Part shown: piece after piece, positions 6,092 through 37,268 of the stretch
How positions within the stretch are numbered: the stretch's first letter is position 1
How the letters are laid out: each line of letters starts with the position of its first letter
Origin: Polyangiales bacterium
GTDB taxonomy: Bacteria > Myxococcota_A > Polyangia > Polyangiales > Houyiibacteriaceae
DNA: 64,000 nt
NCBI GenBank assembly: GCA_046351215.1
Contig: JAXLYX010000009.1
Location: forward strand, 95,758-159,757
Direction: 5' to 3'
Program-made: the position numbers and the translations under genes
The notes under the pieces: generated by a model
Seen by the model: only the letters and a program-made list of their open reading frames with translations
What the model was told of the DNA's origin: nothing
Databases searched by the model: none

Positions 6092-6162
6092 GGAACGATG
6101 GTAGCGGTCGCAAGGAGGACGTCAAGGCAGGCGGGGGACCGCGCCCGTGGTAGGAATCCGCG

Positions 6163-8110: not shown

Positions 8111-8208
8111 CGCTCCCGAACCTAACCGATCGGCGGATCGATTGTCGCCGTTGCCCCGGCGTCGTGGGTCGCCATCATGGACGGGTCCCCCGATCGAAAG
8201 GCCGACCG

Positions 8209-9081: not shown

Positions 9082-9108
9082 GCGGGCCGCGACGCGGGCC
9101 CACGCTCA
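9079..9108. terminator. putative bidirectional hairpin between convergent genes
   Basis: The sequence is TGAGCGGGCCGCGACGCGGGCCCACGCTCA. It forms a 5+5 bp stem with a 2-nt bulge and an 8-nt loop. The outermost base pairs are the two stop codons, TGA at 9079 and the complement of TCA at 9106. There is no U-tract. Confidence 0.35.
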
Positions 9109-10623: not shown

Positions 10624-10678
10624 GGCCGAACGCTAGCAGGTCATCCGCGGCGCCGCCTTCCGTGGACGGAAGCGGAAC

Positions 10679-10707
10679 GGGCCGCCTCCCTCGGGGAGAT
10701 GCGGCCC
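10679..10707 (-). terminator. GC-rich hairpin downstream of the SulP gene and upstream of ilvA
   Basis: GGGCCGC (10679..10685) pairs with GCGGCCC (10701..10707), and there is an inner CTCC/GGAG stem. It lies 28-56 nt past the SulP stop. With no U-tract, it could be a terminator or an ilvA leader structure. Confidence 0.3.
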
Positions 10708-10734
10708 GTCGCGCGGCGCGGAGAGCTGCTCCGC

Positions 10735-12375
10735 TCAGGCGGCCGAGCCACCCGGGGCCGGAGCGGCGGAGAGGCGGCGCGCGGCGAGCTTGTGGCCCGA
10801 GACCGCCTCGTGCTTGTCGAGGCCCGCGAGCACGAGCGCGCGCCCCTGCGAGGCGAGCTCTTCCTGGAGGTCGTGGAGGCGCTCCATCGTCGTGTGGTCG
10901 ACGAGGGTCGTCTGCGACATGTCGAGCACCACGCGTTGAGTCGTCGTGCGCTGGATCTTGCCCTTGAGGTTCAGGTAGTTGCTGAAGATGAGGGCGCTCT
11001 CGAAGCGGAACGTGGTGGTGTCGCCCTCGACCTCCTGGGTCTCGGTCGTCGTGAAGAAGTGGGCGATGGGCACGCCGCGCGTCATGTGGACGAAGAACTT
11101 GAGCGCGATGCCCGCGAAGACGCCGACGAGGAGGTCCGTCGCCAGGGTGACGACCATCGTCGTGACGAAGATCATCAGCTGCTCGCGGCCGATCTCGAGG
11201 GTGTGCGCGAACTCCTTCGGCGAGGCGAGGCGCAGGCCGGTGTAGACGAGCATGCCGCCGAGCGCGGCGAGCGGGATCATCTGGAGGAGGCCCGGGATGA
11301 GGGCGACCGCGAGGAGCAGGAACGCGCCGTGGAAGAAGTTCGACCACTGGCTCCTCGCGCCGTTCGCGATGTTCGCCGAGCTACGGACGATCTCCGAGAT
11401 CATCGGCAGGCCACCGAGGCTCGCCGAGACGAGGTTGCCCACGCCCTGCGCGAGGAGGTCCTTGTTCATGTCCGCGCGGCGACGCATCGGATCGAGGGCG
11501 TCCACCGCCTTCGCGCTCGCGACCGACTCGATGCTGCCGATGAGGCAGAACATCACGATGTACTTGATCGAGGCGCCCGAGGTGATCGCCGAGAAGTCCG
11601 GGAAGACGATGGCGTCGAGGAGCTGGCCCGGGAGCTTCACGAGCAGCGAGGGCGCGACCGTGTAGTCGTGGCCGCTGAAGTGGATCGTGTGCTCGTGCGA
11701 GAAGCCGAAGTAGGTCGCGAGAGGCACCGAGACGAGCACGACCACCATCTGGGCGGGGAGCTTCTTGATCTTCGCGGTCGCCGGGATGTAGAGCCAGCCG
11801 AAGAGGATCACGAGCGCGAGCGCGCCGATGAGGGCGACCGGCGGGTTCAGGTGCTTGATCGCCTCGGGCATGCCGGCGATGAGCTCGAGCGGCTCCTTCA
11901 CCGTCGGGACGACGCCGACGACCGCGTAGAGCTGCTTCGAGAAGATGATGACGCCGATGGCCGCGAGCATCCCGTGGATCACCGAGGACGGGAAGAAGTC
12001 GGCGAGCTTGCCCGCCTTCACGAAGGCGAAGACGATCTGGATCAGGGCCGAGACGACGCCGACGGCCAGCATGCGCTTGTACCCGACGGCCGTGTCGCCC
12101 CCCTCCGGCGTGAGCTCCGTCACGGCGCCGAGGACGATCGCGATGAGGCCGGCGGCGGGGCCCTTGATCGTCAGCGGGGCGCTGCCGAGGTGGGAGGAGA
12201 GGATGCCGCCGACGATCGCCGTGATGATGCCGGCGATGGGCGGGCAGCCGCTCGCCTTGGCGATGCCCAGGCAGAGAGGAAGCGCGATCAGGAAGACGAG
12301 GAAGCCGGAGAGCAGATCCGACTTCCAGTTTTCCTGGAACGTGCCGTATCCGGACTGAGCGAGGGGGTTGGCCAT
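10735..12375 (-). CDS. SulP family inorganic anion transporter with C-terminal STAS domain
   Basis: 546 aa. The N-terminus DLLSGFLVFLIALPLCLGIAKASGCPPIAGIITAIVGG is the SulP signature region. The C-terminus TTFRFESALIFSNYLNLKG...VVLDMSQTTLVDHTTMERL is STAS-like. Confidence 0.9.
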   Translation of the reverse strand: MANPLAQSGYGTFQENWKSDLLSGFLVFLIALPLCLGIAKASGCPPIAGIITAIVGGILSSHLGSAPLTIKGPAAGLIAIVLGAVTELTPEGGDTAVGYKRMLAVGVVSALIQIVFAFVKAGKLADFFPSSVIHGMLAAIGVIIFSKQLYAVVGVVPTVKEPLELIAGMPEAIKHLNPPVALIGALALVILFGWLYIPATAKIKKLPAQMVVVLVSVPLATYFGFSHEHTIHFSGHDYTVAPSLLVKLPGQLLDAIVFPDFSAITSGASIKYIVMFCLIGSIESVASAKAVDALDPMRRRADMNKDLLAQGVGNLVSASLGGLPMISEIVRSSANIANGARSQWSNFFHGAFLLLAVALIPGLLQMIPLAALGGMLVYTGLRLASPKEFAHTLEIGREQLMIFVTTMVVTLATDLLVGVFAGIALKFFVHMTRGVPIAHFFTTTETQEVEGDTTTFRFESALIFSNYLNLKGKIQRTTTQRVVLDMSQTTLVDHTTMERLHDLQEELASQGRALVLAGLDKHEAVSGHKLAARRLSAAPAPGGSAA

Positions 12376-20989: not shown

Positions 20990-23900
20990 TCAGGGCGCGA
21001 GCCCCGAGGCGCCGAGCGCGAGCTCCTTCACCCGCTGGTCGCGCGTGAGGCGGAGCTCCCGCGTCGTGATGCGCTCGTCGGGTCTCCCGGGGCGTTCGAC
21101 GACGACGAGCTCGGCCACGCTCTCCCGGAGGTCCTCGGTGTCCGGGCGCTCGATGCGGATGCGGTAGGTCCCGTCCTCGCGCTCGCGGATGCGGAACGCG
21201 TCGATGCCGAACGAGGGGCCTTCGACCTCGGCCGAGAGCATGGGCTCGGTCGCCGTCATCGTCGGCGTGGCGTAGCGCAGCACGAGCGCGTCGTCCGGAT
21301 GCCGGAAGACGAGGGCGACCCACGCGTCCGGAGGATCGCGGAGCGCGCCCGTCGCCCGTTCGCGCGCGTGGATCGCGGCCCGGAGGGAGGCGTCGCGCGC
21401 GGCGACCTTCATGCGGGCGAGCTGCACGGACGTGTGGAAGCGAGCGTAGGCCGCCGCGCCCTCGTCGACGTCGGCGTCGCTCTGCTCCGAGAGGCGCTGC
21501 TCGAGGCGGAGGGCCTCGTCCGTGCGCCCCGCGGCCTCCGCCGCCCTCGCGAGCAGGAGGAGCACGGCGGGCTCGTCCGGCACGAGCCGCGCGAGCGTCT
21601 CGTACTCGCGGTAGGCGTCGTCGGCGAGGCCGTGGGCCAGGTAGACGTCGCCGAGGCGTCTCCGCGCCCACGGGTCGAGCGGCGTGCGCTCGACGAGCTC
21701 GCTGACCGCGCGGCGTGCCTCGTCCGGCCGTCCCTGCCGCAGCCAGAATTCGGCGACGCGGGTACGGACGCGTGCGTCGGCGAGGGGATCCTCGCGCAGG
21801 CTCGCCGCCACCCGGCGGGCTTCGGGGAGCTTCCGGGTCTCCTCGAGCAGGCGGAGGAAGCGCAGGCGCAGATCGAAGTCGTCGGGCACGACCTCGAGCC
21901 ACCTCCGCACGAGCGCGAGCTTCGCGTCGGGCGTCGTCGCCTGGTTCCACATCCGCGCGAAGACCGACCACTCGACGCCGGCGTCGAGCCCGAGGCCGTT
22001 GCGCACGAGGATCACGTCCTCGGGCGTCCGGACCGCCCTCAGGATCGCCCGCTTGAGGTAGGCGGACACGACGGGATCGTTGACGAAGGCACGGTAGATC
22101 TCGATCTTCCGCGGCATCTCGCGCACGAAGCCGAGGATCATCGTCGCGAGCGCGCGTCGGGCGCCCCAATCCGGGAGCTCGCAGCGGCGCTCCGCGTCGC
22201 GGAAGACCTCGATGGCACCGTCGGTGCTCCCGCCGTACGCGTCGAGGCGCTCCCGCCACAGGCGCTTGCGGGTCGCGAGGTCGCGCTGGGACGCGCTGCT
22301 GCAGTGTCGCGTGATGCCGAGCTGGCGCGTCGGCACGAAGAACTCGAAGACGTGCGTCACGCGGACCGTGGCGCCGAGCGTCGCGGGGAAGCCGAGGCCA
22401 CGGACCTCGTCGAGGATGCAGGCGTCGACGTCGTCGACCCCGAGCGTCGAGGAGACGAGCATGACCGAGAGCACGCGTCCGTTCCCGTCGACCTGCACGT
22501 CGACCGTCACGCGGCCCTGGAGATCGGGACGCGTCGCGAGACGACGTTCGTAGCAGCCGCTCGGGCCACGCCCTCCGAGCGCGAGCACGCGCCGCACGGC
22601 CGCGAGGGCGAGGCCTCCGTCCCCCGTGCCGCCCGCGGCGGCGAGGACGTCGACGGGATGCGATTCCCACGTCGTCTCCGGGGCCGTCGCGACGAAGGGG
22701 CCGCTCTCGGCGCGCGCGCGCCAGCCGAGCGGCGCGCCGAGCTCGTCGCGCCGGAGACCGGGCCCGCGGCCGCCGACGTCCCACGCCGGCTCGTTCGGAT
22801 CCACGTCGAAGCCGCGCAGGAGCGGCACGGGGACGCTCGGCGTGCCTCCGACGACGCGCATCGTCCACGGCGTGAGCAAGGCGAAGCGGAGGCCGAGCTC
22901 CGCGATCGCCTCGCGGCCCTCGTCGTCGTCGAGGAGCTCGTCGAGCCGCCTCGAGCCCCAGCGACGCGGGATGTCGCCGCCGTCGTCGAGACGGGCCGAC
23001 TCGACCTCGAGGGTCTTCTCGACCGCGCGTCCGTCGCGCAGGCCGCGGATCCGCACGCGCTGCGGGAGCTCGCCCTGGAGGCGCGCCACGAGCCGGAGCG
23101 GCTCTCCCTCGGGCACGACCAGCGTGCCGCGCGGGAAGACTCGCTCCACCGTCGGACCGAGCGCGACCGTGACGCCGCGGAGGGTCGGACGGGCGGCGTC
23201 GGCGAGGAAGCGGAGGACGCGGCCGGTGGCCTCCGTGCGATCGCCGACCACCGACGTCGCCTCGCCGAAGACGGCGCGGAGGAGATCCACGTTGGCGTCC
23301 TCGCCGAGACCGAGGGCGAAGAGGCGGGGCGGAGCCTCGACCGAGTCGAGCGCCGCACGGATGGCGGTCGCCGACATCGCGCCCGTGGTGGGCACTCCAT
23401 CGCCGAGGTAGAGCAGCACGCCACGCGGCTTGCCCGCGACGACGGAAGCGGCGCTCCGCAGGCTCGTGGCGAGGTCGGTGGCGCCGGCGACGTCCATCCG
23501 TGCGACGGCCTCGAGGAGCGTGTCGCGCACCGCGGTCGAGGCGGTGGTCGGGGCCGCGGCCACGCCCTCGGGCGTTCGGCTCGCCACGTCCGAGAAGCGG
23601 AGCGTCACCCGATCCGTCGGGGAGAGGTGCCGGAGCACCGACTCGACGACCGAGCGGGCGAGCTCGAGGTCCTCCGGCTCCGTGCCGCCCGAGGTGTCGA
23701 CGACGAGCACGAGATCGAGGGGGTCCTTGGCCTTCGTGGCCTCGTCCGCGTCGAAGAGGCCGTCGGTCGGCACGTCGAAGAGGACGAAGACGTCCTCGCC
23801 CTCGCCGGTCGCACGCGGCCTCCGCGATTCGTAGGCCGCGACCTTCGTCGGCGAGTCGTCGTCGAAGAGATCGACGACGAAGTCGGCACGTGGGCGCGCG

Positions 23901-25087
23901 TCGCTCTGACGCAGCTCGACCGTCGTCCCGCGGATCGTGGCACCCATCCCGGCCCGCATCGTCTTCGCTCCGGAGTCCTTCGCGTCGACGTGGATGGCGA
24001 GCTCGCCGACGAGGGGAGCTTCGCCCTCGGCGCGCATCGGGAGCGCGTACGAGCGCATCGCGCCGCGGCGGACGAGCCACTCGGTGTAGCGGAGCCGCAC
24101 GCGGACGACGGCGCCCGGGGCGATCGGCTGGATCCGGGCGCGGACACGCCCGGGGCCGTCGTAGACGAGACGGCTCGTCGGGACGGAGACGTCGTCGAGG
24201 AAGACCGGCTGGTACACCTGGTTCTGCACGGGGACGACGGACGAGGGGACGTAGCCCGAGCCCGTGTCGACCTCGAAGCCGTCGACGATCGCGTGCTCGG
24301 GGAGACGCACCGCGTACTCGCCCACCACGTTCTCGCTCGCGCCGTTGAAGAAGGTCTGCTCGACGGTGGTCACGGCCAGGTCGCCGCGGATCGTCGCCGT
24401 GACCTCGTGGCCCCGGATGGCGAGCGGCTCGTAGGCCTCGCCGAGGGCCGAGAAGCCGCGTGCCGCGAGGATGCCGACGTGGGAGACGCTCGGCGTCCGC
24501 CGGGGCGTCGGATCCGCGAGCCCACCGGTCCAGTCGTCGAAGACCTCGGCGGGCTCGACCTTCGGGGCGCCCGGCCCGAGCACGAGCGTCTCGCCCTGCG
24601 CGAACCGATCGCTGCCGCGCGGGCTCCGGTACGTGACCTCGCCGGAGGCGCAATACGCTTCCACGCGTCCACCCGCGAGGCGGACGGAGAGCGTGGCCCC
24701 CTCCGCGACGAGCGAGCCGTTCGGCGTCTCGATCGTCGTCGCGTCCGCATCGGTCGCGTCGACGAAGATGCGTCCCTTCTCGAGCACGAGCGAGGCGAGG
24801 TCCGGCTTCACGACGGTGTCGCGATCGAGGAGCACGACGGCGCCCCGATCGAGGCGGAGGATCGCGCGGGCATCGGCCTCGGTGGAGACGCGCATGCCGC
24901 GTTCGACGCGCACGGGGGCGGCGATCGCGCGGCGGGCGCGATCGTTGCCGACGGAGGCTCCGCCGCGGACGAGCTCGGCTCGACCGACCGTGGGGCCGTG
25001 GGTCTCGCCGCCGCCGAAGAGGTCGCAGCCCTGCGTCGCGGGGGCGAGGAGCGCGAGCGCGAGGAAGAGGACGATCGAGCGGTTCAT
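20990..25087 (-). CDS. giant lipoprotein, paralogue 1: FecR-like / VIT / VWA / TonB-C-like / TPR / DUF2135-like (1365 aa)
   Basis: - Lipobox: LLAPATQGC.
- FecR-like beta region: aa ~35-160.
- VIT: LAIRGHEVTATIRGDLAVTTVEQTFFN..SENVVGEYAVRLPE.
- VWA: LDLVLVVDTSGGTE...LLYLGDGVPT.
- TonB-C/AgmX-like: QGRVTVDVQVDGNGRVLSVMLVSSTLGVDDVDACILDEVRGLGFP.
- TPR-like array: ARRRLGDVYLAHGLADDAYREYETLARL.
- A C-terminal beta domain closes the protein. Confidence 0.85.
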   Translation of the reverse strand: MNRSIVLFLALALLAPATQGCDLFGGGETHGPTVGRAELVRGGASVGNDRARRAIAAPVRVERGMRVSTEADARAILRLDRGAVVLLDRDTVVKPDLASLVLEKGRIFVDATDADATTIETPNGSLVAEGATLSVRLAGGRVEAYCASGEVTYRSPRGSDRFAQGETLVLGPGAPKVEPAEVFDDWTGGLADPTPRRTPSVSHVGILAARGFSALGEAYEPLAIRGHEVTATIRGDLAVTTVEQTFFNGASENVVGEYAVRLPEHAIVDGFEVDTGSGYVPSSVVPVQNQVYQPVFLDDVSVPTSRLVYDGPGRVRARIQPIAPGAVVRVRLRYTEWLVRRGAMRSYALPMRAEGEAPLVGELAIHVDAKDSGAKTMRAGMGATIRGTTVELRQSDARPRADFVVDLFDDDSPTKVAAYESRRPRATGEGEDVFVLFDVPTDGLFDADEATKAKDPLDLVLVVDTSGGTEPEDLELARSVVESVLRHLSPTDRVTLRFSDVASRTPEGVAAAPTTASTAVRDTLLEAVARMDVAGATDLATSLRSAASVVAGKPRGVLLYLGDGVPTTGAMSATAIRAALDSVEAPPRLFALGLGEDANVDLLRAVFGEATSVVGDRTEATGRVLRFLADAARPTLRGVTVALGPTVERVFPRGTLVVPEGEPLRLVARLQGELPQRVRIRGLRDGRAVEKTLEVESARLDDGGDIPRRWGSRRLDELLDDDEGREAIAELGLRFALLTPWTMRVVGGTPSVPVPLLRGFDVDPNEPAWDVGGRGPGLRRDELGAPLGWRARAESGPFVATAPETTWESHPVDVLAAAGGTGDGGLALAAVRRVLALGGRGPSGCYERRLATRPDLQGRVTVDVQVDGNGRVLSVMLVSSTLGVDDVDACILDEVRGLGFPATLGATVRVTHVFEFFVPTRQLGITRHCSSASQRDLATRKRLWRERLDAYGGSTDGAIEVFRDAERRCELPDWGARRALATMILGFVREMPRKIEIYRAFVNDPVVSAYLKRAILRAVRTPEDVILVRNGLGLDAGVEWSVFARMWNQATTPDAKLALVRRWLEVVPDDFDLRLRFLRLLEETRKLPEARRVAASLREDPLADARVRTRVAEFWLRQGRPDEARRAVSELVERTPLDPWARRRLGDVYLAHGLADDAYREYETLARLVPDEPAVLLLLARAAEAAGRTDEALRLEQRLSEQSDADVDEGAAAYARFHTSVQLARMKVAARDASLRAAIHARERATGALRDPPDAWVALVFRHPDDALVLRYATPTMTATEPMLSAEVEGPSFGIDAFRIREREDGTYRIRIERPDTEDLRESVAELVVVERPGRPDERITTRELRLTRDQRVKELALGASGLAP

Positions 25088-28000
25088 CGGCCGGCCTCCG
25101 GCTGCGTGGGGGTGGCGGTCCTTATCGCATCGCCCTCGACCGCGAAGGCGAAGCTCCGATGCGTCGCGTCGAATCGGAGCGGGAAGACGGCGATCCGCTC
25201 GTCGCGTGCGCCCTCGCGCAGCACGACGACCAGCTTCGCGTCGACCGAGCCGAGCGAGTCGTGGGCACCACGTCGCACCTCGAAGCGGTAGGTGCCGGGC
25301 TCCTGCTCGGCGACGTCGAAGGCCTCGAGCCCGAACTCCGGGGCGAGGTCTTCCGGGCGCGTGAGCGAGAGCCCGGGGTGCGAGGCGTAGAGCGCGAGGT
25401 CGGCGTCCGGATGGGCCCAGACGAGCGTGGCGCGGAGCGCGGACGCCTGGCGGAGCATGCCGCCCCGGCGCAGCGCGGCGAGGTAGGCGCGCACGCGTTC
25501 CGCGTCGTTCGCCTCGCGCGCCGTCTTGCGGAGCTCGGCGAGCCGCACCGACGACCAGAGCATCGCGGTCCGGGCCGCGCCCTCGGCGCCGCCGGGCGAG
25601 GCGGTCTCCGCGAGGCGCTGCTCGAGCCGGAGCGCCTCGTCGATGCGTCCCGCGCCGGCGGCCGCCTGCGCGAGCAGGAGGTTCACCGTCGGGTCGTCGG
25701 GGCGGATCGTCGCGAGCGTCTGGTACTGGCGGTACGCGTCGTCGTACCAGCCGTGGGCACGGTAGAGATCCCCGAGCCGGCGTCGCGCGAGCTCGTCGTT
25801 CGGCGCGAATTCGACGATCTCGCTGAAGACGCGGCGCGCCTCGGCCTCGTCGCCGAAGCGGAGGTACATCTCTCCGATCGCGGTCCGCACGCCGGCGTCC
25901 GCGAGGGGATTGCCGCGGAGCTGCTCGGCCACGCGCATCGCCTCGTCCTTGTGTCCCGCGTGCTCGAGCGCCGCGAGCAGCCGGAGCGCGAGGTCGAGGT
26001 CGAAGGAGAAGCGGGCGGCGAGCGCCCGGAGGATGCGGAGCTTCGAGGCCTCGTCGGTGGCGCGCGCGAGCTCGCCCTCGATCAGGGCCGCGTCCGCGGC
26101 GCCGGAGCCGAAGGCGTCACGTGCCGCGCGGAGATCGTCCGGCGTCCGCACGCGCGCCAGGATCGCGCGGCGGAGGTAGAGGCGTGCGCCCGCCTGCGAG
26201 AGCTCGCGGTACACGCCGATCATGCCGGGCACGTCGCCCGCGCGCGTCAGCACGAGGTCGAGGAGCACTCGCCGATCGCGCCAGGTCGGGGTCTCGCAGG
26301 CGCGCGTCGCGCGCTCGAAGACCTGCGCCTGATCGTAGGCGGAGTACGCGTTCGCGAGCCGCTCGCGCCAGAGCCCCTTGCGGGCGTCGAGGAGGAGCGG
26401 AGCCGCGTCGCTGCAGCGTCGCGTGTCGTGGCCGACGACGAGGACGGTCGTCGCGACGATCGCGGCGCTCGTCCCGGACGTCGGCGGAGGTGCGGCGCGT
26501 TCCCGCTCGTCGGCGTAGGGGTTCGCGTCGAGATCGTCGACCGCTCGGCGCGCCTCGCGGGAGCGCGTGGAGCGCATCGGAGCGACGCCTGCGCCCCGGC
26601 CGTAGCCGGAGCCACTCGCGGAGCCGGCGCCGTGGCCGATCGTGCCGATGCTGCCCATGCCGATGGAGTCCTCGCCCGTGCCGCCGCCACCGACGCCGGT
26701 GCCGCGGAGACCGAGGCCCCCGAAGCCCTGCGCGGGCGCGTCCGCGGTGGTCCCGTCCGCGCTCCCCGTCGCGGCGACGGGCGAAGCGGGCGCGGGCTCC
26801 GGCATGGGCGCCGCGGCCTGTGGCTGGTTCACGGCGGCGACGTTCGCCGCGCGATCGGCGGCCGCCTGTGCCTCGCTGCGTGCTTCCTCCGCCTCGGCGG
26901 GAGGCGCGGCCGCGGCCGGCGCGCCCGGCGTCGTCGTGCTCGTCGGTGCGACGGTCGACGGTGGGGCGGACGAGGCCTGGGCCTGCTCGGTCGGGCGCTC
27001 GGGCGCGGCGCTCTCGTTCGAGCAACCGGCGAGGCCGAGCAGACCCGCGAGCGGCCATTCGATCACCGCCGGCAGGCTCCACGGCATCGAGACCCGGGGC
27101 GCCTCCGCGAGCGCGCCGCGCTCGTAGAGCGGCCGTGCGCGAGGTCCGAGCTCCGTGAGCTCCGCGGCGCTCGGCACGTAGAACGAGGTGAACGGCGTGA
27201 TGATGCCGAAGCGCGTGCCGAGGTCGGCGACCTCCACCCGCTGCGCGCCCGAGAGGAGCAGCTGCTCGAGGCGCGCGCTCGCCCAGCGGAGGCGGAGATC
27301 GCCCTCGTCCTCGAGCGACTTCGTCTCGATCGTCACGCGCTGCTCGAAGGGCCGTCCGGCGAAGAGGCCGCGCACCTTCACCGAGCTCGGGACGGAGCCG
27401 CGCACGCGCCCGACGATGGGGAGCACGTCGCCGAGGACGACGTCGCGGGAGCCTCGCGGGTAGAGCCGATCGATACCCGCGCCGAGGTCGACCTCGACGC
27501 GCGAGACGACGGGACGGCTCGCGTGCGCGAAGAGGCGGAGCGCGGCCTCCGCCGCCTCGGCCCGCGTCTCGACGCGCTCGGCGAGGCCCCCTCCACGCAC
27601 GAGCGAGGAGAGCAGCTCGAGGTTCGCGTCCGCGCCGACGGCGAGGGCGTACGCGCGCAGCGGAGCGGGCAGGCGCGCGAGCCGCTCGAGCAGCGTGCCC
27701 GCGCCGAGCTCGCCGACCGTGGGGCTCCCGTCGCCGACGTAGACCACCGCGCCGGGCCGCGCGGGATCGAGGAGCCCCGCAGCCTCGACGAGCATGGCGC
27801 CGAGATCCGTCGCGCCGCCCGAGGGCATTCGCGAGAGGCCGTCGAGCAGGCGCGTGACCCGCTCGCGCGACGCGGGCCCGAGCCGCGCGTCCGACGCGCC
27901 CTGGACCGTGCGGATCGCGAGGTCGCCCGCGACGATCGCGATGCGATCCTCGGGGCGCAGCGTGGTCGAGAGGGCCTCGATCACGGTGCGACCGAGCTCG

Positions 28001-29418
28001 AGGTGCGAGCGATCCGTGCCCGCCGAGAGATCGGCGACCACGACGAGGTCGAGACCCCTCGCGCTCGGCGGCGGCGTCGGGGGGCTGATGCGGAGCGGCA
28101 GGAAGAAGTAGTCGCTCTCCTCCTCGGCCGGCGCGGGGCCCGCGCGCGGATCGCGAGGCGGGGGCGAGTGATCCGCGCGGTACGCGTAGGTCGACGTGCC
28201 CTCTCCCTCGAGCTCGAGCACGAAGTCCGCGCGGGGCTGGAAGTCGCTCCGCCGGAGCACGACCCGATCTCCGTCCACGCGCGCGCCGTGGCCCGCGCGC
28301 ACGGCGGTGGCATTCGAGCCTCCGAGCTCGGCGACGAGAGCGAGCTCCTGGATCGGCGGCAGGTCGTCGGAGCCCGCCATCCGGTAGCGATAGACACGAG
28401 GTCCTTCGGGCGTCGTGCGCGAGAGCCACTCGGAGTAGCGGATGGCGATGCGCCGCGACTCGCCCGCCTGGATCGGGTAGATGCGCGCGCGGTACCGACC
28501 GGGGGCGTCCCACTCGAGGAGCGCGGGATCGAGGGTCGAGCCCCGATAGACCTGTGCCTCGTACGCGCGCGCCGCCTGCTGCTTCTCGCGGACGTAGCCG
28601 TCGACCATCCGGCCGTTCCGATCCACCGCGAAGCGGTGCAGCACGGCCTCGTCGGGGACGGCGATCCGGTAGATCCCCTCGACGGTCTCGCTCGCGGGGT
28701 TGAAGAAGACCTGCTCCACCTCGGTGATCGCGAGGTCGCCGACCACGCGCACCGTCACGCGCATGTCGCGGATCACGAGCGGCCAGCGCGCTTCGCCGAT
28801 GGCGTCCGGCACTCGGCCTTCGAGCACGCCGACTCCCTCGGCGGCTCGCGAGGCACGGGGTCCCGGCTCGGCGAGCCCGCCCGTCCAATCCGCCCAGAGC
28901 TGCTCGGCCCGCTCGGTCGCACGTCCGCCCTCGAGCCTCAGCTCTTCGCCCGCCCGTGCGACGCCGCGCGCTCCGCGGGCGACGTAGGCGACCTCGCCGC
29001 GGATCACGTGCACGACGGTCGCGGCGCCGGCGAGCTCGAGCGAGGCCTCGGCCGCCGAGAGGCGGAGGGTCCCCTGCGGGGTCTCGACGACGAGGGGAGA
29101 GCGCCCGCGCGCCCTCGCGTACACGCGTCCGGCCTCGAGCTTCAGCGAGGCATCGCCCGTCGGAACGAGGCGCGCGCCGCCGTCGACGAGGAGATCCCCG
29201 CCGTCGTCGAGGGTGACGCGCGCGAGGCCGCCCGACTCGACCCGCAGCGCGTCGTCGCGACCGGCCCGTGCGAACCGTGTCACCGCCGCGCCGTCGACCG
29301 TCGCGCGACCGCGGATCGACGCGACGGATGCGAGCGTCGCCCCGACGTCCTCCCCGATCGACCCCACGCATCCCGAGAGCGCGAGGACCAAGACAAGCCC
29401 CGTTCCGATGCGTCGCAT
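25084..29418 (-). CDS. giant lipoprotein, paralogue 2: FecR-like / VIT / VWA / low-complexity linker / TPR / DUF2135-like (1444 aa)
   Basis: - Lipobox: LVLALSGC. A GGAGGG Shine-Dalgarno sequence precedes ATG 29418.
- VIT: LVIRDMRVTVRVVGDLAITEVEQVFFNPASETVEGIYRIAVPDEA...YVREKQQAARAYEAQV.
- VWA: LDLVVVADLSAGTD...VVYVGDGSPT.
- A P/A/G/S-rich linker follows.
- TPR-like array: ARRRLGDLYRAHGWYDDAYRQYQTLATI.
- The stop overlaps the start of paralogue 1 as ATGA at 25084..25087. Confidence 0.85.
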   Translation of the reverse strand: MRRIGTGLVLVLALSGCVGSIGEDVGATLASVASIRGRATVDGAAVTRFARAGRDDALRVESGGLARVTLDDGGDLLVDGGARLVPTGDASLKLEAGRVYARARGRSPLVVETPQGTLRLSAAEASLELAGAATVVHVIRGEVAYVARGARGVARAGEELRLEGGRATERAEQLWADWTGGLAEPGPRASRAAEGVGVLEGRVPDAIGEARWPLVIRDMRVTVRVVGDLAITEVEQVFFNPASETVEGIYRIAVPDEAVLHRFAVDRNGRMVDGYVREKQQAARAYEAQVYRGSTLDPALLEWDAPGRYRARIYPIQAGESRRIAIRYSEWLSRTTPEGPRVYRYRMAGSDDLPPIQELALVAELGGSNATAVRAGHGARVDGDRVVLRRSDFQPRADFVLELEGEGTSTYAYRADHSPPPRDPRAGPAPAEEESDYFFLPLRISPPTPPPSARGLDLVVVADLSAGTDRSHLELGRTVIEALSTTLRPEDRIAIVAGDLAIRTVQGASDARLGPASRERVTRLLDGLSRMPSGGATDLGAMLVEAAGLLDPARPGAVVYVGDGSPTVGELGAGTLLERLARLPAPLRAYALAVGADANLELLSSLVRGGGLAERVETRAEAAEAALRLFAHASRPVVSRVEVDLGAGIDRLYPRGSRDVVLGDVLPIVGRVRGSVPSSVKVRGLFAGRPFEQRVTIETKSLEDEGDLRLRWASARLEQLLLSGAQRVEVADLGTRFGIITPFTSFYVPSAAELTELGPRARPLYERGALAEAPRVSMPWSLPAVIEWPLAGLLGLAGCSNESAAPERPTEQAQASSAPPSTVAPTSTTTPGAPAAAAPPAEAEEARSEAQAAADRAANVAAVNQPQAAAPMPEPAPASPVAATGSADGTTADAPAQGFGGLGLRGTGVGGGGTGEDSIGMGSIGTIGHGAGSASGSGYGRGAGVAPMRSTRSREARRAVDDLDANPYADERERAAPPPTSGTSAAIVATTVLVVGHDTRRCSDAAPLLLDARKGLWRERLANAYSAYDQAQVFERATRACETPTWRDRRVLLDLVLTRAGDVPGMIGVYRELSQAGARLYLRRAILARVRTPDDLRAARDAFGSGAADAALIEGELARATDEASKLRILRALAARFSFDLDLALRLLAALEHAGHKDEAMRVAEQLRGNPLADAGVRTAIGEMYLRFGDEAEARRVFSEIVEFAPNDELARRRLGDLYRAHGWYDDAYRQYQTLATIRPDDPTVNLLLAQAAAGAGRIDEALRLEQRLAETASPGGAEGAARTAMLWSSVRLAELRKTAREANDAERVRAYLAALRRGGMLRQASALRATLVWAHPDADLALYASHPGLSLTRPEDLAPEFGLEAFDVAEQEPGTYRFEVRRGAHDSLGSVDAKLVVVLREGARDERIAVFPLRFDATHRSFAFAVEGDAIRTATPTQPEAGR

Positions 29419-32456: not shown

Positions 32457-34343
32457 TTGGACGAAGTCGCGAAACACGCGTCGTTCCTCCCCGAGCCGCC
32501 CGCATCGGGCGCTTCCGAGGCGGTGACGCGCCCATCGGTCTACAGGCCCGCGCCCGCCCCCCCGGACCGCACCGGACTCCGGTTCACGAGGCGCTTCCAC
32601 CACGCGAACCCGCTCGGAACGCCGAGGGCGATCAGCTGGTTCGGCTTCCGCTCCTTCTGGGGTCATCTCCGCCACTTCATGGCGAGCGCCATCGCCACCG
32701 ACGACGTCGACACGCGCGATTGGATGGAGCCGACTCCCCCCCCGCAGTTCGCCGCCAAGATCTCGAACGAGCTCGGCGCCGAGCCCATGCATCCCACGCT
32801 CGTCGAGAACCTCGGTCGGGATCTCTTCGTCGACTTCGTCGCCGACACGGGCGACGACGGCATGGTCTCGTACGCGGTCGGAAAGATGCTGTTCCAACCG
32901 TATCGCCTCCCGGACCCGCGCGATCCCTCGCGCGAGATCGTCGCCGAGCGGGGCGACCTCCTCGTGCACGGCGGCGATCTCGCCTACCCCGTCGGCACCG
33001 CGAACCAGATCCAGGATCGCCTGCTCGCCCCGTGGAACGCGGCGCTGAAGACGCTCCCCGACGACGGTCGGCCGCGCGTGATGCTCGGCATCCCCGGCAA
33101 CCACGATTGGTACGACGGCATCGACGGCTACGCGCGCACGTTCCGCGAGCGCCACTTCAGCGAGGAGCCCGAGGCGCGCACCGAGACGACGGATGTCTCC
33201 TGGCTCGACACGAGCCTCCGCTTCGTCGGCAACCTGATCGCCGGTCAGACGATGCACCGCGCCCACGCGCTCGTGCTCCACGGGTACCGCACGGTGCAGC
33301 GCGCGAGCTACTTCGTGCTCCCGCTCCTGCCGAACCTCCATCTCTACGCGGCGGATCGACATCTCCGCAGCATCGACTACCGGCAGAAGCGCTTCTTCCT
33401 CGACTGGTGGAACCGCCACCCCGAGGCGGCGCGGCTCGTCGTGCTGCACGATCCCGTCCTGCCCTTCGGACGGCCGAGCCGCGACGGGCTGAAGGTGATC
33501 CACTCGCTGCGTCTCTCGCCGCAGTCCGAGAGCCACATGGTCCTCGCCGGCGACATCCACCACTACCGACGCGAGCGCGTCGGACAGGGCATCCACGTCA
33601 CGGCAGGTGGCGGCGGCGCGTTCCTCCATCCTTCTCCGATCAAGGCGGACGGCGGGCATCCGGCCGAGGTGCAATGGCCCGGTCCGAAGCAGTCGAAGCG
33701 CCTCCTCTCCGGAGTCCCGCTCCACGTGGCGCTCGGGCGCTCGGGGCACATCCCGCACGCCGTGATGACCGCGATCTCCGTGCCGATGCTCGGTCTCGGG
33801 GGCTACGAGCTCGGAGAGGTCGGGCTCGTCATCGCCTCGATCGTCTCGGGGCTGCTCGCCGCCGTCGTGATGGCGTTCATCGGAGGCGTCCGGAAGGGAC
33901 CGGCCTGGAAGATCGCGTTGCTCTCGGTCGCGGCCGGGCTCGCGACCGGCGCCGTGCCCGGGCTCGTCCTCGCGATCGTCGGGCGCCTCTTCGCCACGCT
34001 CTCGCTCGAGGCGAACACCTGGTTCTGGGGAGCCATCGCGCTCGTCAGCGCCGTCGGAACGGGAGGCTTCGTCTTCGGCACCTTCCTCGCGATGCTCACG
34101 TACCTCGGCTACGAGAACACGCAGGCCTTCACGGCCCTCGCGCATCCGGGCTTCCGGCACTTCGTGCGTCTCCGCGTGCGAGAGGACCAGAGCGGAGTCG
34201 ACGCGTGGTGCATCGGCCTCGAGGATCCCCTCGATCCCGAGAGCAAGCCGGTGGTCGTCGACTCGTTCGCCTGGGAGCTGCCGGGGAAGGGCGAGATGGC
34301 GAGACGGCTCTCGATCCCGCCGGCCGCGAGGCCGCCGGGCTAG
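32457..34343 (+). CDS. metallophosphoesterase with a C-terminal polytopic membrane domain
   Basis: The TTG start is uncertain. MPE motifs are FVADTGDDG, LLVHGGDLAYP, GIPGNHDWYDG and LAGDIHHYRR. After these come about four hydrophobic segments (VIASIVSGLLAAVVMAFIGG, IALLSVAAGLATGAVPGLVLAIVG, FWGAIALVSAVGTGGFVFGTFLAML). Confidence 0.8.
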   Translation: MDEVAKHASFLPEPPASGASEAVTRPSVYRPAPAPPDRTGLRFTRRFHHANPLGTPRAISWFGFRSFWGHLRHFMASAIATDDVDTRDWMEPTPPPQFAAKISNELGAEPMHPTLVENLGRDLFVDFVADTGDDGMVSYAVGKMLFQPYRLPDPRDPSREIVAERGDLLVHGGDLAYPVGTANQIQDRLLAPWNAALKTLPDDGRPRVMLGIPGNHDWYDGIDGYARTFRERHFSEEPEARTETTDVSWLDTSLRFVGNLIAGQTMHRAHALVLHGYRTVQRASYFVLPLLPNLHLYAADRHLRSIDYRQKRFFLDWWNRHPEAARLVVLHDPVLPFGRPSRDGLKVIHSLRLSPQSESHMVLAGDIHHYRRERVGQGIHVTAGGGGAFLHPSPIKADGGHPAEVQWPGPKQSKRLLSGVPLHVALGRSGHIPHAVMTAISVPMLGLGGYELGEVGLVIASIVSGLLAAVVMAFIGGVRKGPAWKIALLSVAAGLATGAVPGLVLAIVGRLFATLSLEANTWFWGAIALVSAVGTGGFVFGTFLAMLTYLGYENTQAFTALAHPGFRHFVRLRVREDQSGVDAWCIGLEDPLDPESKPVVVDSFAWELPGKGEMARRLSIPPAARPPG

Positions 34344-34346
34344 CGC

Positions 34347-34458
34347 GCGCGTGCACGAAGGGCGTGCACGTGGACGATGGGCCGTTCACGTGCACGTTCG
34401 GCCGTGCACGTGCGCGTGCACGAAGGGCGTGCACGTGGACGATGGGCCGTGCACGTGC
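34347..34458. repeat. intergenic tandem repeat carrying seven copies of the palindrome CGTGCACG
   Basis: A 39-bp unit, GCGCGTGCACGAAGGGCGTGCACGTGGACGATGGGCCGT, is identical at 34347..34385 and 34412..34450, a 65-bp period. The match extends to about 47 bp with one mismatch. CGTGCACG starts at 34350, 34363, 34389, 34403, 34415, 34428 and 34448. Confidence 0.9.
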
Positions 34459-34494
34459 TCGTCGGCTCGGCGCCTTCCTGCTACCTTCCGCCCG

Positions 34495-34959: not shown

Positions 34960-35670
34960 TCAGCTCGTCTGGCGAGCCGCCTCGATCGATCGTCGGATGC
35001 GCTCCTCGAGCCACTCGGCGCGCGCGTAGTTGTCGACGCTGCCCGGGAGGTGGCCTGGGAGGGCTTCGACGAAATCGGGGGTGTCGAGCCATTCGACGAA
35101 GGATTCCGCGAGGAATGCCCGGAGCTCGGCGCCGGCAGCTCGGATCTCGTCGAGGAGCTCGAGCCGACCGTCGAGGATGGCCACGATGTCCTCGATGTCC
35201 TTGCTCGCCAGGAAGTCACCGCCACCTCGACCCCGAAACGCCTCGATCTTGGTGGCCACGAAGTGCGGAGCATCGACGACCGGCACGCGGGCGCCGTTCG
35301 GGAGCTCCACCGACGACGCGGAAGCGAGGGCCGCTTCGTACCAGCGGTTCGCGAAGCCGAGCACGCGCGCGTCGGTGGGCATGATGTCGATGACGACCCC
35401 CTCGAGCGTCCAGCGGCAGAGGGGAGCGCCTTCGGAATCGTCCTCGCGTGCGCCGAGGCGGCGTAGCTCGGGCCCGAGAGACGTCGCATAGTCGGACATG
35501 TCTCGCACTTCCACGATGAGGTCGAGGTCGAGAGTCGCTCGCGGAGGCGCTGCGGCGGGATCGGTGACGAGCAGCCCCGTGGTCGCACCTCCGACGAAAG
35601 CGATTCGTCGGGGGAGGCTCGTGAGGCGTGCACTCACCGCCATGAGCATGTCGATCGAGTCGCGTGTCAT
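34960..35670 (-). CDS. pol-beta-superfamily nucleotidyltransferase, AbiEii/DUF1814-like
   Basis: This is the C-terminal 236 aa of track ORF 34960..36114, starting at ATG 35670. The NTase motif IAFVGGATTGLLV...RATLDLDLIV fits hGG...DxD. A second motif, ATKIEAFRGRGGGDFLASKDIEDIVAIL, resembles the K..A..R....[RK]D..D element of AbiEii toxins. Confidence 0.65.
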   Translation of the reverse strand: MTRDSIDMLMAVSARLTSLPRRIAFVGGATTGLLVTDPAAAPPRATLDLDLIVEVRDMSDYATSLGPELRRLGAREDDSEGAPLCRWTLEGVVIDIMPTDARVLGFANRWYEAALASASSVELPNGARVPVVDAPHFVATKIEAFRGRGGGDFLASKDIEDIVAILDGRLELLDEIRAAGAELRAFLAESFVEWLDTPDFVEALPGHLPGSVDNYARAEWLEERIRRSIEAARQTS

Positions 35671-36173
35671 GCGGCGAGCAGCTCGCGGAGCGCCGAGGCC
35701 GCGACGTCGCGTTCGCGCGCCGAACCGGCTCGGAGGGCATCCGTGACGGCCAGCAGGGCGTAGAGCTTCGGGTCGCGCGAAGCGGCCTTGGGCGCGCCCG
35801 GATACATCGGCTCGAGCGACTCGCCACGAACGGTTCCGGTGCGGTCGGGCCAGACCAGGGGGATCGCATCCCGAGACACGAGCCGGTCTGCGAGCGGAGG
35901 TGCGGAGGTTCCGGTGGGGAGCCCGCGGGCCATGGCGCCTCGCCTCGCAGGGAAGGCGTACCTCGCCCCGTGGACCAGGAACTCGAGGAGCGCGGCACGA
36001 ACGGGCCTGCGCGCGTCCGGCGTGAGCAGGCCGGACTCGATCGCGCGCTGGGCGCTCTCGTGTACGCCGGAGGCGCTCATCCCCAAGCTGGCGGCGAGGC
36101 CTGCGTAGGTCCACGGCTCGCCCGCCAAGGTCGCGACCTTGAGGGCGACGACGACGTCCTGGGGCTTGAGCAT
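35667..36173 (-). CDS. winged-helix DNA-binding protein, putative cognate antitoxin/regulator
   Basis: 168 aa. The N-terminus MLKPQDVVVALKVATLAGEPWTYAGLAASLGMSASGVHESAQRAIESGLL looks wHTH-like. Its stop overlaps the NTase start as ATGA at 35667..35670. Confidence 0.65.
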   Translation of the reverse strand: MLKPQDVVVALKVATLAGEPWTYAGLAASLGMSASGVHESAQRAIESGLLTPDARRPVRAALLEFLVHGARYAFPARRGAMARGLPTGTSAPPLADRLVSRDAIPLVWPDRTGTVRGESLEPMYPGAPKAASRDPKLYALLAVTDALRAGSARERDVAASALRELLAA

Positions 36174-36184
36174 GGAATCAGGCT

Positions 36185-36201
36185 ATTCGCAATTCGCGAA
36201 T
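36185..36201. promoter_or_regulatory. palindromic operator candidate upstream of the wHTH/NTase pair
   Basis: ATTCGC (36185..36190) is followed by the perfect 10-bp palindrome ATTCGCGAAT (36192..36201). It lies 12-28 nt upstream of the wHTH start codon at 36173, in a locally AT-richer stretch. Confidence 0.45.
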
Positions 36202-36293
36202 GGCGCAACAGGGGCCTCCCCTCGTCCGATGGCATGGCGTGGCACCGCGCCCCTGGCAGGCCCCGAGCCTCCGTGCGCGCTCGAGGCGTTCCG

Positions 36294-37268
36294 TCAGGCC
36301 GCCACGACCATCTCGGCCGTCGGCACTCCCTCGGGCGCCTCGGCGCCGACCTGGAGGCTCTGGGCGAGACGGCGCTCGACCGCGAGGCGATCGGCGACGG
36401 CGGGCGCGAGCGCGCGGCCGACGGCGCGTGCGCTCGGGAAGCGGTGATCCTTCTCGCGGCGGAGGAGGCCGGCGACGACCTCGTCGAGCACGCGGGGGAT
36501 GCCCGCCATGCGGTGCGAGACGCGCGGCGCCTCCTCGCGGAGGATGCGGCGGAGCAGGGCCGAGACGCTCGAGGCGCTGAACGGGAGCTCGCCCGTCAAC
36601 GATTCGTAGAGCGTGACGCCGAGGCCGTAGAGATCGGCGCGTGCGTCGACGTCGGGATTGCCTCCGGCCTGCTCGGGGGAGACGTAGCTCGGGGTGCCGA
36701 AGACGCGGCCGCGCTCGCGGTCCTTCTCGTCGAGCGGCGCCGACTCGGAGGCACAGACGCCGAAGTCGAGGACGGAGACGCGGAGCGCGCCGCCCTCCGT
36801 ACGGTCGAGGAGCACGTGCTCCGGCTTGAGGTCCCGATGGACGTAGCCGGCCTGGTGGACGCTGTGGAGGATCGACGCGAGCCGGAGGCCGATCGCCGCC
36901 GCCTCGTCGGGCTCGAGCAGCCCGCGCCGACGGAGCAGGCGCGAGAGGCTCTCGGAGTGCATCCGCTCGAGCACGATGTAGGGCGAGCCGTCGGGCAGGA
37001 GACCGACGTCGCGCACCGGCACGATGCCGGGATGCGGCACGCGGCGGGCGACCTCGGCTTCGCGCCGGAGCCGGCGCTCGAGGTCCGCGTGATGGGCGAA
37101 CATGGGCCGGAGGGTCTTCACGACGACCGTCGCCCCGTCGGTCAGCCGTGTCGACTCGAAGACCACGCTGGTGCCCCCGACCCCGATGGCCGGACCGATG
37201 CGGTACAGGCCGTCGAGCACGGTGCCACGCAGCTCGGAGCGTTCGTCCGTCGACATGGCACCGGACAT
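36294..37268 (-). CDS. Hanks-type serine/threonine protein kinase (kinase domain plus short tail)
   Basis: The Gly loop is IGVGGTSVVF and the catalytic Lys is in VVVKTL. The catalytic loop is YVHRDLKPEHVLL, followed by DFG (LDFGVC) and the GTPSYVSPEQ activation segment. Confidence 0.9.
   Translation of the reverse strand: MSGAMSTDERSELRGTVLDGLYRIGPAIGVGGTSVVFESTRLTDGATVVVKTLRPMFAHHADLERRLRREAEVARRVPHPGIVPVRDVGLLPDGSPYIVLERMHSESLSRLLRRRGLLEPDEAAAIGLRLASILHSVHQAGYVHRDLKPEHVLLDRTEGGALRVSVLDFGVCASESAPLDEKDRERGRVFGTPSYVSPEQAGGNPDVDARADLYGLGVTLYESLTGELPFSASSVSALLRRILREEAPRVSHRMAGIPRVLDEVVAGLLRREKDHRFPSARAVGRALAPAVADRLAVERRLAQSLQVGAEAPEGVPTAEMVVAA

Follow-up and report, generated by a model that had tools for sequence, protein, structure and literature searches.

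A putative toxin–antitoxin-type module pairing a winged-helix protein with a DUF1814-superfamily nucleotidyltransferase in a Polyangiales genome

Gene Organization of the Locus

The stretch of DNA analyzed here (the window; 64,000 nucleotides, 72% G+C, positions 95,758 to 159,757 of contig JAXLYX010000009.1 in assembly GCA_046351215.1 of a Polyangiales bacterium) carries on its minus strand two overlapping genes, termed A and B, which encode a winged helix-turn-helix (wHTH) protein and a nucleotidyltransferase (NTase) and are preceded by a palindromic putative operator. Gene A (36173..35667) specifies 168 aa with the N-terminus MLKPQDVVVALK, and gene B (35670..34960) specifies 236 aa beginning MTRDSIDM; the stop codon of A and the start codon of B share ATGA at 35670..35667, a 4-bp overlap. 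In gene orientation, the DNA 5′ of A reads TTGCGC-c-ATTCGCGAAT-t-GCGAA-TAGCCT-gattcc-ATG. Proteins U0230_11905 and U0230_11910 of the metagenome-assembled genome (MAG) are identical to the pair, and both predicted open reading frames are real genes by homology, since 1073 homologues were counted for B and 663 for A. A sequence-only reading of this DNA had described the two genes with their ATGA overlap, the NTase motifs FVGGATTGLLVTD...RATLDLDLIV and KIEAFRGRGGGDFLASKDIEDI in B, and a palindrome with a further half-site upstream of A; all are present where it placed them, with ATTCGCGAAT at 36192..36201 and ATTCGC-N5-GCGAAT at 36201..36185.

The scan for relatives covered one genome per species and found a B homologue in at least 591 species; gene pairing was compared in the best 80 loci, and single loci are cited by L numbers where they must be told apart. 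The features of the window locus are listed below.

36203..36208, minus strand: predicted −35-like hexamer TTGCGC, placed from the window sequence and from TTGCGC or TTGCAC directly 5′ of the operator in many relatives (L003, L009, L024, L039, L044, L100)
36185..36201, minus strand: putative operator, the 17-bp inverted repeat ATTCGC-GAATT-GCGAAT, containing ATTCGCGAAT at 36192..36201 and conserved in related loci
36180..36185, minus strand: predicted −10-like hexamer TAGCCT, separated from the ATG by 6 nt; in relatives TATAAT takes the equivalent position
35667..36173, minus strand: gene A, predicted winged-helix repressor and putative antitoxin of the PDC-M21A family, assigned from PADLOC, AlphaFold and conservation
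34960..35670, minus strand: gene B, DUF1814-superfamily NTase and putative toxin (PDC-M21B), assigned from PADLOC, Pfam, fold and motifs

Gene B Encodes a Predicted DUF1814-Superfamily Nucleotidyltransferase

The PADLOC scan that the sequence-only reading had suggested matched both proteins to models of one candidate defense system, A to PDC-M21A (E 8.6e-43) and B to PDC-M21B (E 1.1e-59); PADLOC models for AbiEii, the toxin of the AbiE system, match B at E 0.049 only. Searches with the Pfam AbiEii model (PF08843), also proposed by that reading, found similarity to 25 of 36 aligned B homologues (E<=1; best E 2.5e-8), and precomputed PF08843 annotation is present on some B homologues; B of the window itself scores E 1.2e-3 and 19.3 bits, with the gathering cut-off at 22.5. 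The Pfam models NTP_transf_2 and Polbeta do not match B, NCBIfam gave no match for A or B, single-sequence searches of the Protein Data Bank (PDB) with either protein returned nothing significant, and a PHROGs search yielded a marginal HTH match only.

Motifs I–IV of DUF1814 proteins were defined by Dy et al. (2014; PMC3985639), I and II having the form hG[GS]-x(n)-DhD with an Arg and a Ser/Thr within motif II. By these definitions all four are found in B: motif I is F25-V-G27-G28; motif II is R44-A-T46-L-D48-L-D50 (RxTxDxD), in which T46 occupies the position of the phospho-acceptor threonine; motif III is K141-I-E-A-F-R-G-R148, which fits KLxAaxxR; and motif IV is K157-D158-I-E-D161, which fits the +DxxD pentad. 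R44, T46, D48, and D50 of B correspond to R63, T65, D67, and D69 of AbiEii. Across 200 B-family sequences, D48, D50, C85, D95, K141, and R148 are 100% conserved; T46 is Thr in 199 and Ser in one; and near-invariance extends to A144 (199/200), F145 (197/200), D158 (199/200), and D161 (198/200), with His, Lys or Arg at position 157 in 189 of the 200.

A B-family profile matches the Mycobacterium tuberculosis toxin MenT1 (E 3.9e-4), aligning T46 with T39, D48 with D41, D50 with D43, and K141 with K137; in MenT1, T39 is the phospho-acceptor, D41 and D43 are metal ligands, and K137 is the catalytic lysine (PMC11375011). The AlphaFold model of B (predicted local distance difference test, pLDDT, 94) has MenT1 as its nearest solved fold by Foldseek (E 5.6e-7; template-modeling scores 0.52/0.64); the top chains are 8AN5, 8RR5, and 8AN4 (E 6e-7 to 9e-6), JHP933 and ANT(2'')-Ia come next (E 1e-3 to 3e-4), and MenT1, JHP933, and ANT(2'')-Ia are all listed in the literature as DUF1814 superfamily members. 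By motifs and modeled fold, B is thus assigned to the pol-beta-fold NTases of the AbiEii/DUF1814 superfamily, on its MenT1/COG4849-like side, and is closer to MenT1 and to COG4849-type motif III than to AbiEii of Streptococcus agalactiae. The earlier identification of B as an AbiEii-like pol-beta-fold NTase is borne out by the four motifs, the Pfam matches among its relatives and the MenT1 fold.

Gene A Encodes a wHTH Protein Distinct from AbiEi

The Pfam matches of A are to generic wHTH families only (MarR_2, HTH_24, AsnC-type). Its AlphaFold model (pLDDT 95) comprises a wHTH at residues ~1–58 and a conserved alpha/beta C-terminal domain at ~59–168; Foldseek matches, to DtxR-, IdeR-, and MarR-type repressors, cover the wHTH part alone, and no Foldseek match covers the C-terminal domain. 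The family is large (3577 representatives of 50%-identity clusters), has 22 invariant columns in its alignment and lacks a Pfam or NCBIfam model of its own.

The sequence-only reading suspected that A is no typical AbiEi, and three tests agree with this: AbiEi_1, AbiEi_3, and AbiEi_4 are not among the Pfam families listed for 34 A members; a search of PDB sequences with a profile of the A family turned up neither AbiEi nor Rv2827c at E<=10; and AbiEi is absent from the 50 Foldseek matches listed for A. By these tests, A is not a member of the AbiEi/COG5340 family. The accompanying remark that A is much shorter than AbiEi proteins was overstated, as S. agalactiae AbiEi has 195 aa (PDB 6Y8Q), SanaA 136 aa, and SdenA 174 aa.

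A Conserved Operator Lies Within the Predicted Promoter of Gene A

The 17-bp inverted repeat ATTCGCGAATTGCGAAT (ATTCGC-N5-GCGAAT; 36201..36185 in gene orientation) lies 11 nt upstream of A. Its ATTCGCGAAT 10-mer is not statistically remarkable within the 64-kb window alone (one exact match; 1.48 matches with up to one mismatch expected by chance), and the operator was therefore judged from related loci. ATTCGCGAAT stands upstream of A in 36 of 78 loci, against one match in 753 kb of flanking DNA; ATTCGC-N5-GCGAAT is found upstream of A in 35 of the 78, in six of them as two overlapping sites (e.g., cATTCGCtATTCGCGAATaGCGAATg); and the generic form ATTCNN-N5-NNGAAT is present in 62 of the 78 upstream regions, against 16 occurrences in the background. 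The enrichment upstream of A is roughly 1000-fold or more, and in 47 of 60 loci the operator lies 20–31 nt before the conserved Lys3 codon. The palindrome is, on this comparative evidence, a genuine, phylogenetically conserved operator and the putative binding site of A, in keeping with the earlier proposal of a palindromic operator, to which its covariation with the recognition helix of A (below) adds.

In the window the −35-like and −10-like hexamers are 17 nt apart, and the operator takes up this spacer. Several relatives (L014, L035, L044, L061, L073, L077, L080) have TATAAT 6–7 nt before the ATG, after the operator, and a Shine-Dalgarno-like tetramer is missing between operator and Lys codon in 42 of 60 loci; a leaderless or near-leaderless A-B mRNA, with the operator covering the promoter core, is therefore likely.

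The center of the operator covaries with residue 36 of A, which lies in the S-x-S-E-V-H recognition helix. Residue 36 is Glu in 43 of 44 loci with a CG center (ATTCGCGAAT) and Gln or Arg in all 12 loci with ATTC(TA/TG/CA)GAAT (Fisher p = 2e-11 for the contrast of E with Q/R), and a rough neighbor-joining tree has the Q/R36 types at six or more separate positions. Other helix variants pair with other palindromes, LYPSEVY with the ATTCAA type and SRFEAH with the ATATGC type. This covariation is strong indirect evidence that A binds the site through helix 3.

The Pair Is Conserved, Patchily Distributed, and Often Plasmid-Borne

Gene A lies directly upstream of B on the same strand in all of the best 80 loci, which span at least eight phyla or classes (Myxococcota, Acidobacteriota, Thermodesulfobacteriota, Zeta-, Beta-, and Gammaproteobacteria, Cyanobacteriota, and Bacteroidota). 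The spacing between A and B is most often −4 (32 of 81 loci) and next −8 (12 of 81), so that the regulator-first arrangement with a 4-bp overlap noted by the sequence-only reading is modal in the family. Members are carried by 115–122 plasmids, mostly conjugative or mobilizable; a phage genome collection contained no B homologue. A housekeeping role for the pair was rejected on the grounds of its patchy distribution and plasmid carriage, and the universal conservation that the earlier reading had named as evidence against its proposal was not found.

Relatives adjoin type I, type IIG, and other restriction-modification (R-M) genes as well as integrases and transposases. Neighbors include type I HsdM (L047, L070), an MmeI-type enzyme (L039), a SNF2 helicase with a DNA methylase (L007) and a TIR protein (L084); L086 has a DNA methyltransferase, an IS3 transposase, and an integron integrase nearby, and L087 has PIN, Fic, PLD, and AAA-ATPase plus UvrD genes. 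At L007, from a Kofleriaceae MAG, the NTase frame continues into the SNF2-family helicase (6001–9600; 1199 aa in total) and is followed by an N6/N4 DNA methylase (9603–11321); this NTase-SNF2 frame is either a real fusion or the product of a lost stop codon or assembly error.

Phosphatase Genes Recur at the Third Position of the Operon

Plasmids of Agrobacterium, Rhizobium, Pseudomonas, and Acinetobacter carry a third gene, overlapping B at its 3′ end, whose product is a PP2C phosphatase (PDC-M21C, E 2e-87 to 8e-93). Legionellaceae have a calcineurin-like metallophosphoesterase in this third position, which is non-homologous to PP2C, has no PADLOC match and looks like a non-homologous replacement of it. 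PP2C (PPM) and calcineurin-like (PPP) enzymes have Ser/Thr-phosphate hydrolysis as their common activity. The third genes are listed below.

L087, 6671–7408: PP2C, PDC-M21C
L088, 5686–6402: PP2C, PDC-M21C
L092, 5114–5785: PP2C, PDC-M21C
L093, 5139–5849: PP2C, PDC-M21C
L089, 5683–6501: Legionellaceae metallophosphoesterase
L021, 6697–7512: Legionellaceae metallophosphoesterase
L059, about 1642–2256: Legionellaceae metallophosphoesterase

In a published model, auto-phosphorylation of an active-site residue, induced by the antitoxin, turns MenT1, MenT3, and AbiEii off, and a PP2C-type phosphatase can reverse this (PMC11375011; bioRxiv 10.64898/2026.01.19.700257). The phosphatase genes of other clades, together with the invariant T46, fit this published phospho-switch model for B, and their recurrence within the operon supports a control of B by phosphorylation.

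The window itself has the two-gene form. Searches (tblastn) of the 64-kb window with two PDC-M21C proteins and the Legionella metallophosphoesterase returned nothing even at E<=10, and B is followed by a convergent gene without a PADLOC match. A 628-aa Metallophos protein (32457..34343) was considered as an in-operon phosphatase and rejected, as it lies on the opposite strand two genes away and is not similar to the Legionella phosphoesterase. At 120 bp upstream of A stands a Ser/Thr kinase gene (36294..37268, minus strand), and at L064 a kinase with Sel1 repeats (6757–8787) lies 73 nt downstream of B. Myxobacterial genomes contain very many Ser/Thr kinase genes of this type. Kinase adjacency is not kept in the nearest relatives examined (L094 and L081) or in most of the 80 loci, and a functional link to the upstream kinase was dropped for this lack of conservation; the adjacency is probably coincidental, though notable under the phospho-switch model. 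The strong PADLOC PD-T4-6 matches of this kinase were set aside as generic kinase-domain matches.

Two further observations concern the window at large. A 54-nt unit with many GTGCACGTG-type palindromes occurs twice (34344–34462; 94% identical, 65 nt apart) between the 628-aa metallophosphoesterase-like gene and the next open reading frame, at a distance of ~500 bp from the 3′ end of B. Two neighboring genes that overlap at 20990–25087 and 25084–29418 on the minus strand code for giant paralogues (1365 and 1444 aa), each with FecR, VIT, and TPR domains and one also with VWA.

Relation to Known Systems

By its PADLOC matches the pair is the A and B part of the candidate PDC-M21, in a two-gene form without the C gene. 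Payne et al. (bioRxiv 10.1101/2024.01.29.577857, supplementary table 8) arrived at PDC-M21 from genes that lie inside BREX, DISARM, and type I R-M systems, and give it as the three-gene cassette FAM_01665>>FAM_00091>>FAM_01402 with 166 RefSeq instances; a full-text search for the name found it in no main text of the literature, only in that supplementary table. The window shares with PDC-M21 the adjacent, co-oriented A and B genes of the same families and differs in that the PP2C third gene was not found in its 64 kb. The sequence-only reading had suggested a divergent or new antitoxin class; A is indeed distinct from AbiEi, but the pair is already represented by the PDC-M21A and PDC-M21B models.

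Among characterized systems, MenAT1 (Rv0078A/Rv0078B) resembles the pair in having the antitoxin gene first and in the active-site residues of its toxin: R44, T46, D48, D50, and K141 of B match R37, T39, D41, D43, and K137 of MenT1, and MenT1 is said to belong to the COG4849 branch, whose motif III, KLxAaxxR, fits KIEAFRGR of B. However, B is ~40 aa longer than MenT1 and ~20% identical to it, and MenA1 is a 7.4-kDa single-helix protein without wHTH or autoregulation, whereas A is a 168-aa protein with wHTH, C-terminal domain, and conserved operator. AbiE (S. agalactiae, Lactococcus lactis) and MenAT3 have in common with the pair an overlapping bicistronic operon in which a two-domain wHTH protein, the antitoxin (putative in the case of A), is encoded with a DUF1814 NTase, promoter inverted repeats for autoregulation (predicted for the pair), and the RxTxDxD, K...R, and +DxxD motifs that are also present in B. 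The differences from AbiE lie in A, which beyond the generic wHTH has no detectable relationship to AbiEi/COG5340; in the operator, which in AbiE consists of two separate inverted repeats (IR1 and IR2) and in the present family is the compact ATTCGC-N5-GCGAAT, doubled and overlapping in some loci; and in B, which scores under the Pfam AbiEii threshold. The antitoxin-first bicistronic operon and promoter inverted repeats of AbiE are thus found here and an AbiEi/COG5340 antitoxin is not; because A is not AbiEi by the Pfam, PDB-profile, and Foldseek tests, the pair is, by sequence and modeled structure, not AbiE in the strict sense. The type IV label that the earlier reading attached to such loci is outdated, as current descriptions place AbiE, MenAT1, and MenAT3 with the type VII systems, in which the antitoxin induces auto-phosphorylation (PMC11375011; bioRxiv 10.64898/2026.01.19.700257). 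The A-B pair may be an instance of the COG4861-COG4849 pair predicted long ago (Kim et al., 2005; Dy et al., 2014), in which a wHTH regulator gene likewise precedes a DUF1814 NTase gene with KLxAaxxR.

The A module also occurs in HepT-MntA systems. At L100 a single protein (P0173; 114–971) joins a complete A module to an MntA-type minimal NTase; an overlapping hepT (HEPN) gene (961–1320) follows, and the same operator and promoter lie upstream (TTGCGC-TATTCGTGATTCGCGAATA); P0324 and P0327 are further A-MntA-type fusions. The window differs from these in that B is of DUF1814 type, not a minimal MNT, that no HEPN gene is adjacent and that the NTase of HepT-MntA is the antitoxin whereas B is the presumed toxin. 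These A-MntA fusions upstream of hepT place A on the antitoxin side of toxin–antitoxin systems. An A module further forms the N-terminus of P0262, P0294, P0310, P0326, and P0378 (1020–1468 aa) and of P0383 (556 aa), whose remaining ~400–1300 residues have no Pfam match.

Discussion

The A-B pair is probably a self-contained, autoregulated two-gene module of toxin–antitoxin or abortive-infection type, of the MenT/AbiEii (DUF1814) kind and a two-gene form of PDC-M21; the window locus is one solitary, intact module in this genome and not a new kind of system. In the mechanism proposed, A, probably as a dimeric winged-helix protein, would bind ATTCGC-N5-GCGAAT between the −35 and −10 elements and repress the A-B operon, and B would be made by translational coupling via the ATGA overlap. 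By analogy with MenT1, MenT3, and AbiEii, B, a putatively active NTase, would extend tRNA 3′ ends and arrest translation when unrestrained. By analogy with MenA1/MenT1, MenA3/MenT3, and AbiEi/AbiEii, A, the only candidate neutralizer in the operon, would restrain B, most likely through binding that stimulates auto-phosphorylation of Thr46, and loss of A or dephosphorylation would free B; Ser/Thr phosphatases, operon-encoded in other clades and host-supplied here, would re-activate it. Repression and translational coupling are proposed because of sequence, covariation, and conservation, and the toxicity of B, its restraint by A and its release because of homology with characterized systems and the linkage to phosphatases. 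Direct observations are the gene structure, the family membership, the constant pairing, the conservation of the operator and its covariation with A, the conservation of the catalytic and phospho-acceptor residues, and the phosphatase genes of relatives; that A binds DNA and represses, that B is toxic and acts on tRNA, that B is phosphorylated and that the pair has any part in phage defense are inferences.

Several points weigh against this interpretation. The neighbors in the window look like chromosomal genes of an ordinary sort (CHAD, TPR, histidine phosphatase, Ser/Thr kinase, PD40, AsmA), and no GC deviation and no nearby tRNA or integrase were found in the window, for which reasons a horizontally acquired island was rejected. 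PDC-M21 stands in Payne et al. as a candidate defense system only, and the curation of that study labeled the two-gene cassette (713 instances) 'Reject' and gave no reason (bioRxiv 10.1101/2024.01.29.577857); the homologous AbiE system of S. agalactiae gave no protection against 32 coliphages. The Pfam AbiEii score of B in the window is below the gathering cut-off, and a scan of the locus for sigma-70 and terminator consensus sequences called no promoter or terminator, on account of which the promoter was placed only through alignment with relatives. Residue 36 of A in the window is Gly (SASGVHES; codon ~36068–36066), where most ATTCGCGAAT-type relatives carry Glu, and this Gly is shared across the window's own clade; a Glu stands in the next helix turn of A in this clade, and may be a compensating shift. 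Finally, a direct A:B contact is presumed, and, because A-MNT fusions retain the C-terminal domain of A, this may be a dimerization or sensor domain and not a toxin-neutralizing one, or possibly a domain for dimerization or NTase-fold binding in general and not a neutralizer specific to DUF1814.

The preferred account, a two-gene toxin–antitoxin-type module, has to be set against three others. If B were a benign small-molecule- or RNA-modifying nucleotidyltransferase, such as an ANT(2'')-like resistance or modification enzyme, and A its ligand-responsive MarR-like repressor, the pair would be no toxin–antitoxin pair at all. Such a reading, which we consider improbable, could draw on the likeness of the B fold to ANT(2'')-Ia and JHP933, on an A N-terminus resembling MarR, AsnC, and DtxR repressors (PGAP names some homologues 'MarR family') and on the non-defense chromosomal context of the window. 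It sits poorly with the strict conservation of the phospho-acceptor T46 in RxTxDxD and of the DUF1814-specific motifs III and IV, with the recurrence of Ser/Thr phosphatase genes in the operon, with a best fold match (MenT1) that is a proven toxin, with the A module on the antitoxin side of the HepT-MntA system, and with the patchy, mobile distribution of the family and its embedding beside R-M systems. The reading of the pair as canonical AbiE (AbiEi/AbiEii), a type IV abortive-infection system that is merely divergent in sequence, is a shade less probable still: the regulator-first overlapping bicistronic operon, the promoter inverted repeat, the weak Pfam AbiEii match of B and the PGAP name 'AbiEii/AbiGii toxin family protein' on some homologues would all be expected of it, yet A gives no AbiEi (COG5340) signal (Pfam, n=34; PDB, E<=10; top 50 Foldseek), the PADLOC match of B to AbiEii is weak (E 0.049 vs 1e-59 for PDC-M21B), B is nearer MenT1 with a motif III of COG4849 type, and the type IV (non-interacting) model has itself since been revised.

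A last alternative would make A a transcriptional autoregulator only, with B kept inactive through phosphorylation by a host kinase, for example the upstream Ser/Thr kinase, and released by phosphatases, so that the functional unit would exceed two genes. The kinase gene at 36294..37268, on the same strand as A and 120 bp away, the L064 kinase 73 nt downstream of B, the third-position phosphatases of other clades and the retention of the A C-terminal domain in A-MNT fusions, which occur without a DUF1814 toxin, are compatible with it; nevertheless it is the most improbable of the three, as the adjacency is not kept in L094, L081 or most of the 80 loci, as such kinase genes abound in myxobacteria, and as phosphorylation in the characterized MenT/AbiEii systems is autocatalytic and antitoxin-induced, not carried out by a kinase.

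Beyond the two-gene toxin–antitoxin-type module itself, a broader and more doubtful possibility can be put forward tentatively. The A family would be an independent antitoxin class for DUF1814 NTases, unrelated to AbiEi, MenA1, and MenA2, which combines a portable, evolvable operator-repressor cassette (Glu at residue 36 for a CG center, Gln or Arg for TA, TG, and CA) with control of the Thr46 phospho-switch; an in-operon PP2C or metallophosphoesterase would act as trigger or reset in three-gene variants, and host phosphatases or kinases in two-gene variants such as that of the window. As the same module would serve MntA-HepT systems and unannotated proteins of 1000–1470 aa, it might be a general regulatory head for NTase-based toxin and defense systems.

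The module joins a known toxin type and a known operon logic to an uncharacterized, putative antitoxin family with a well-defined operator; its unusually clean pairing of E36 with CG and of Q/R36 with TA, TG or CA could serve to study or engineer wHTH specificity. DUF1814 NTase systems (AbiE, MenAT) are among the most abundant toxin–antitoxin and defense modules, and antitoxin-induced auto-phosphorylation has recently been proposed as their unifying mode of control. With a strictly conserved phospho-acceptor Thr, two non-homologous types of Ser/Thr phosphatase recruited and an antitoxin family unlike those studied, the present family provides an independent comparative-genomic test of that proposal.

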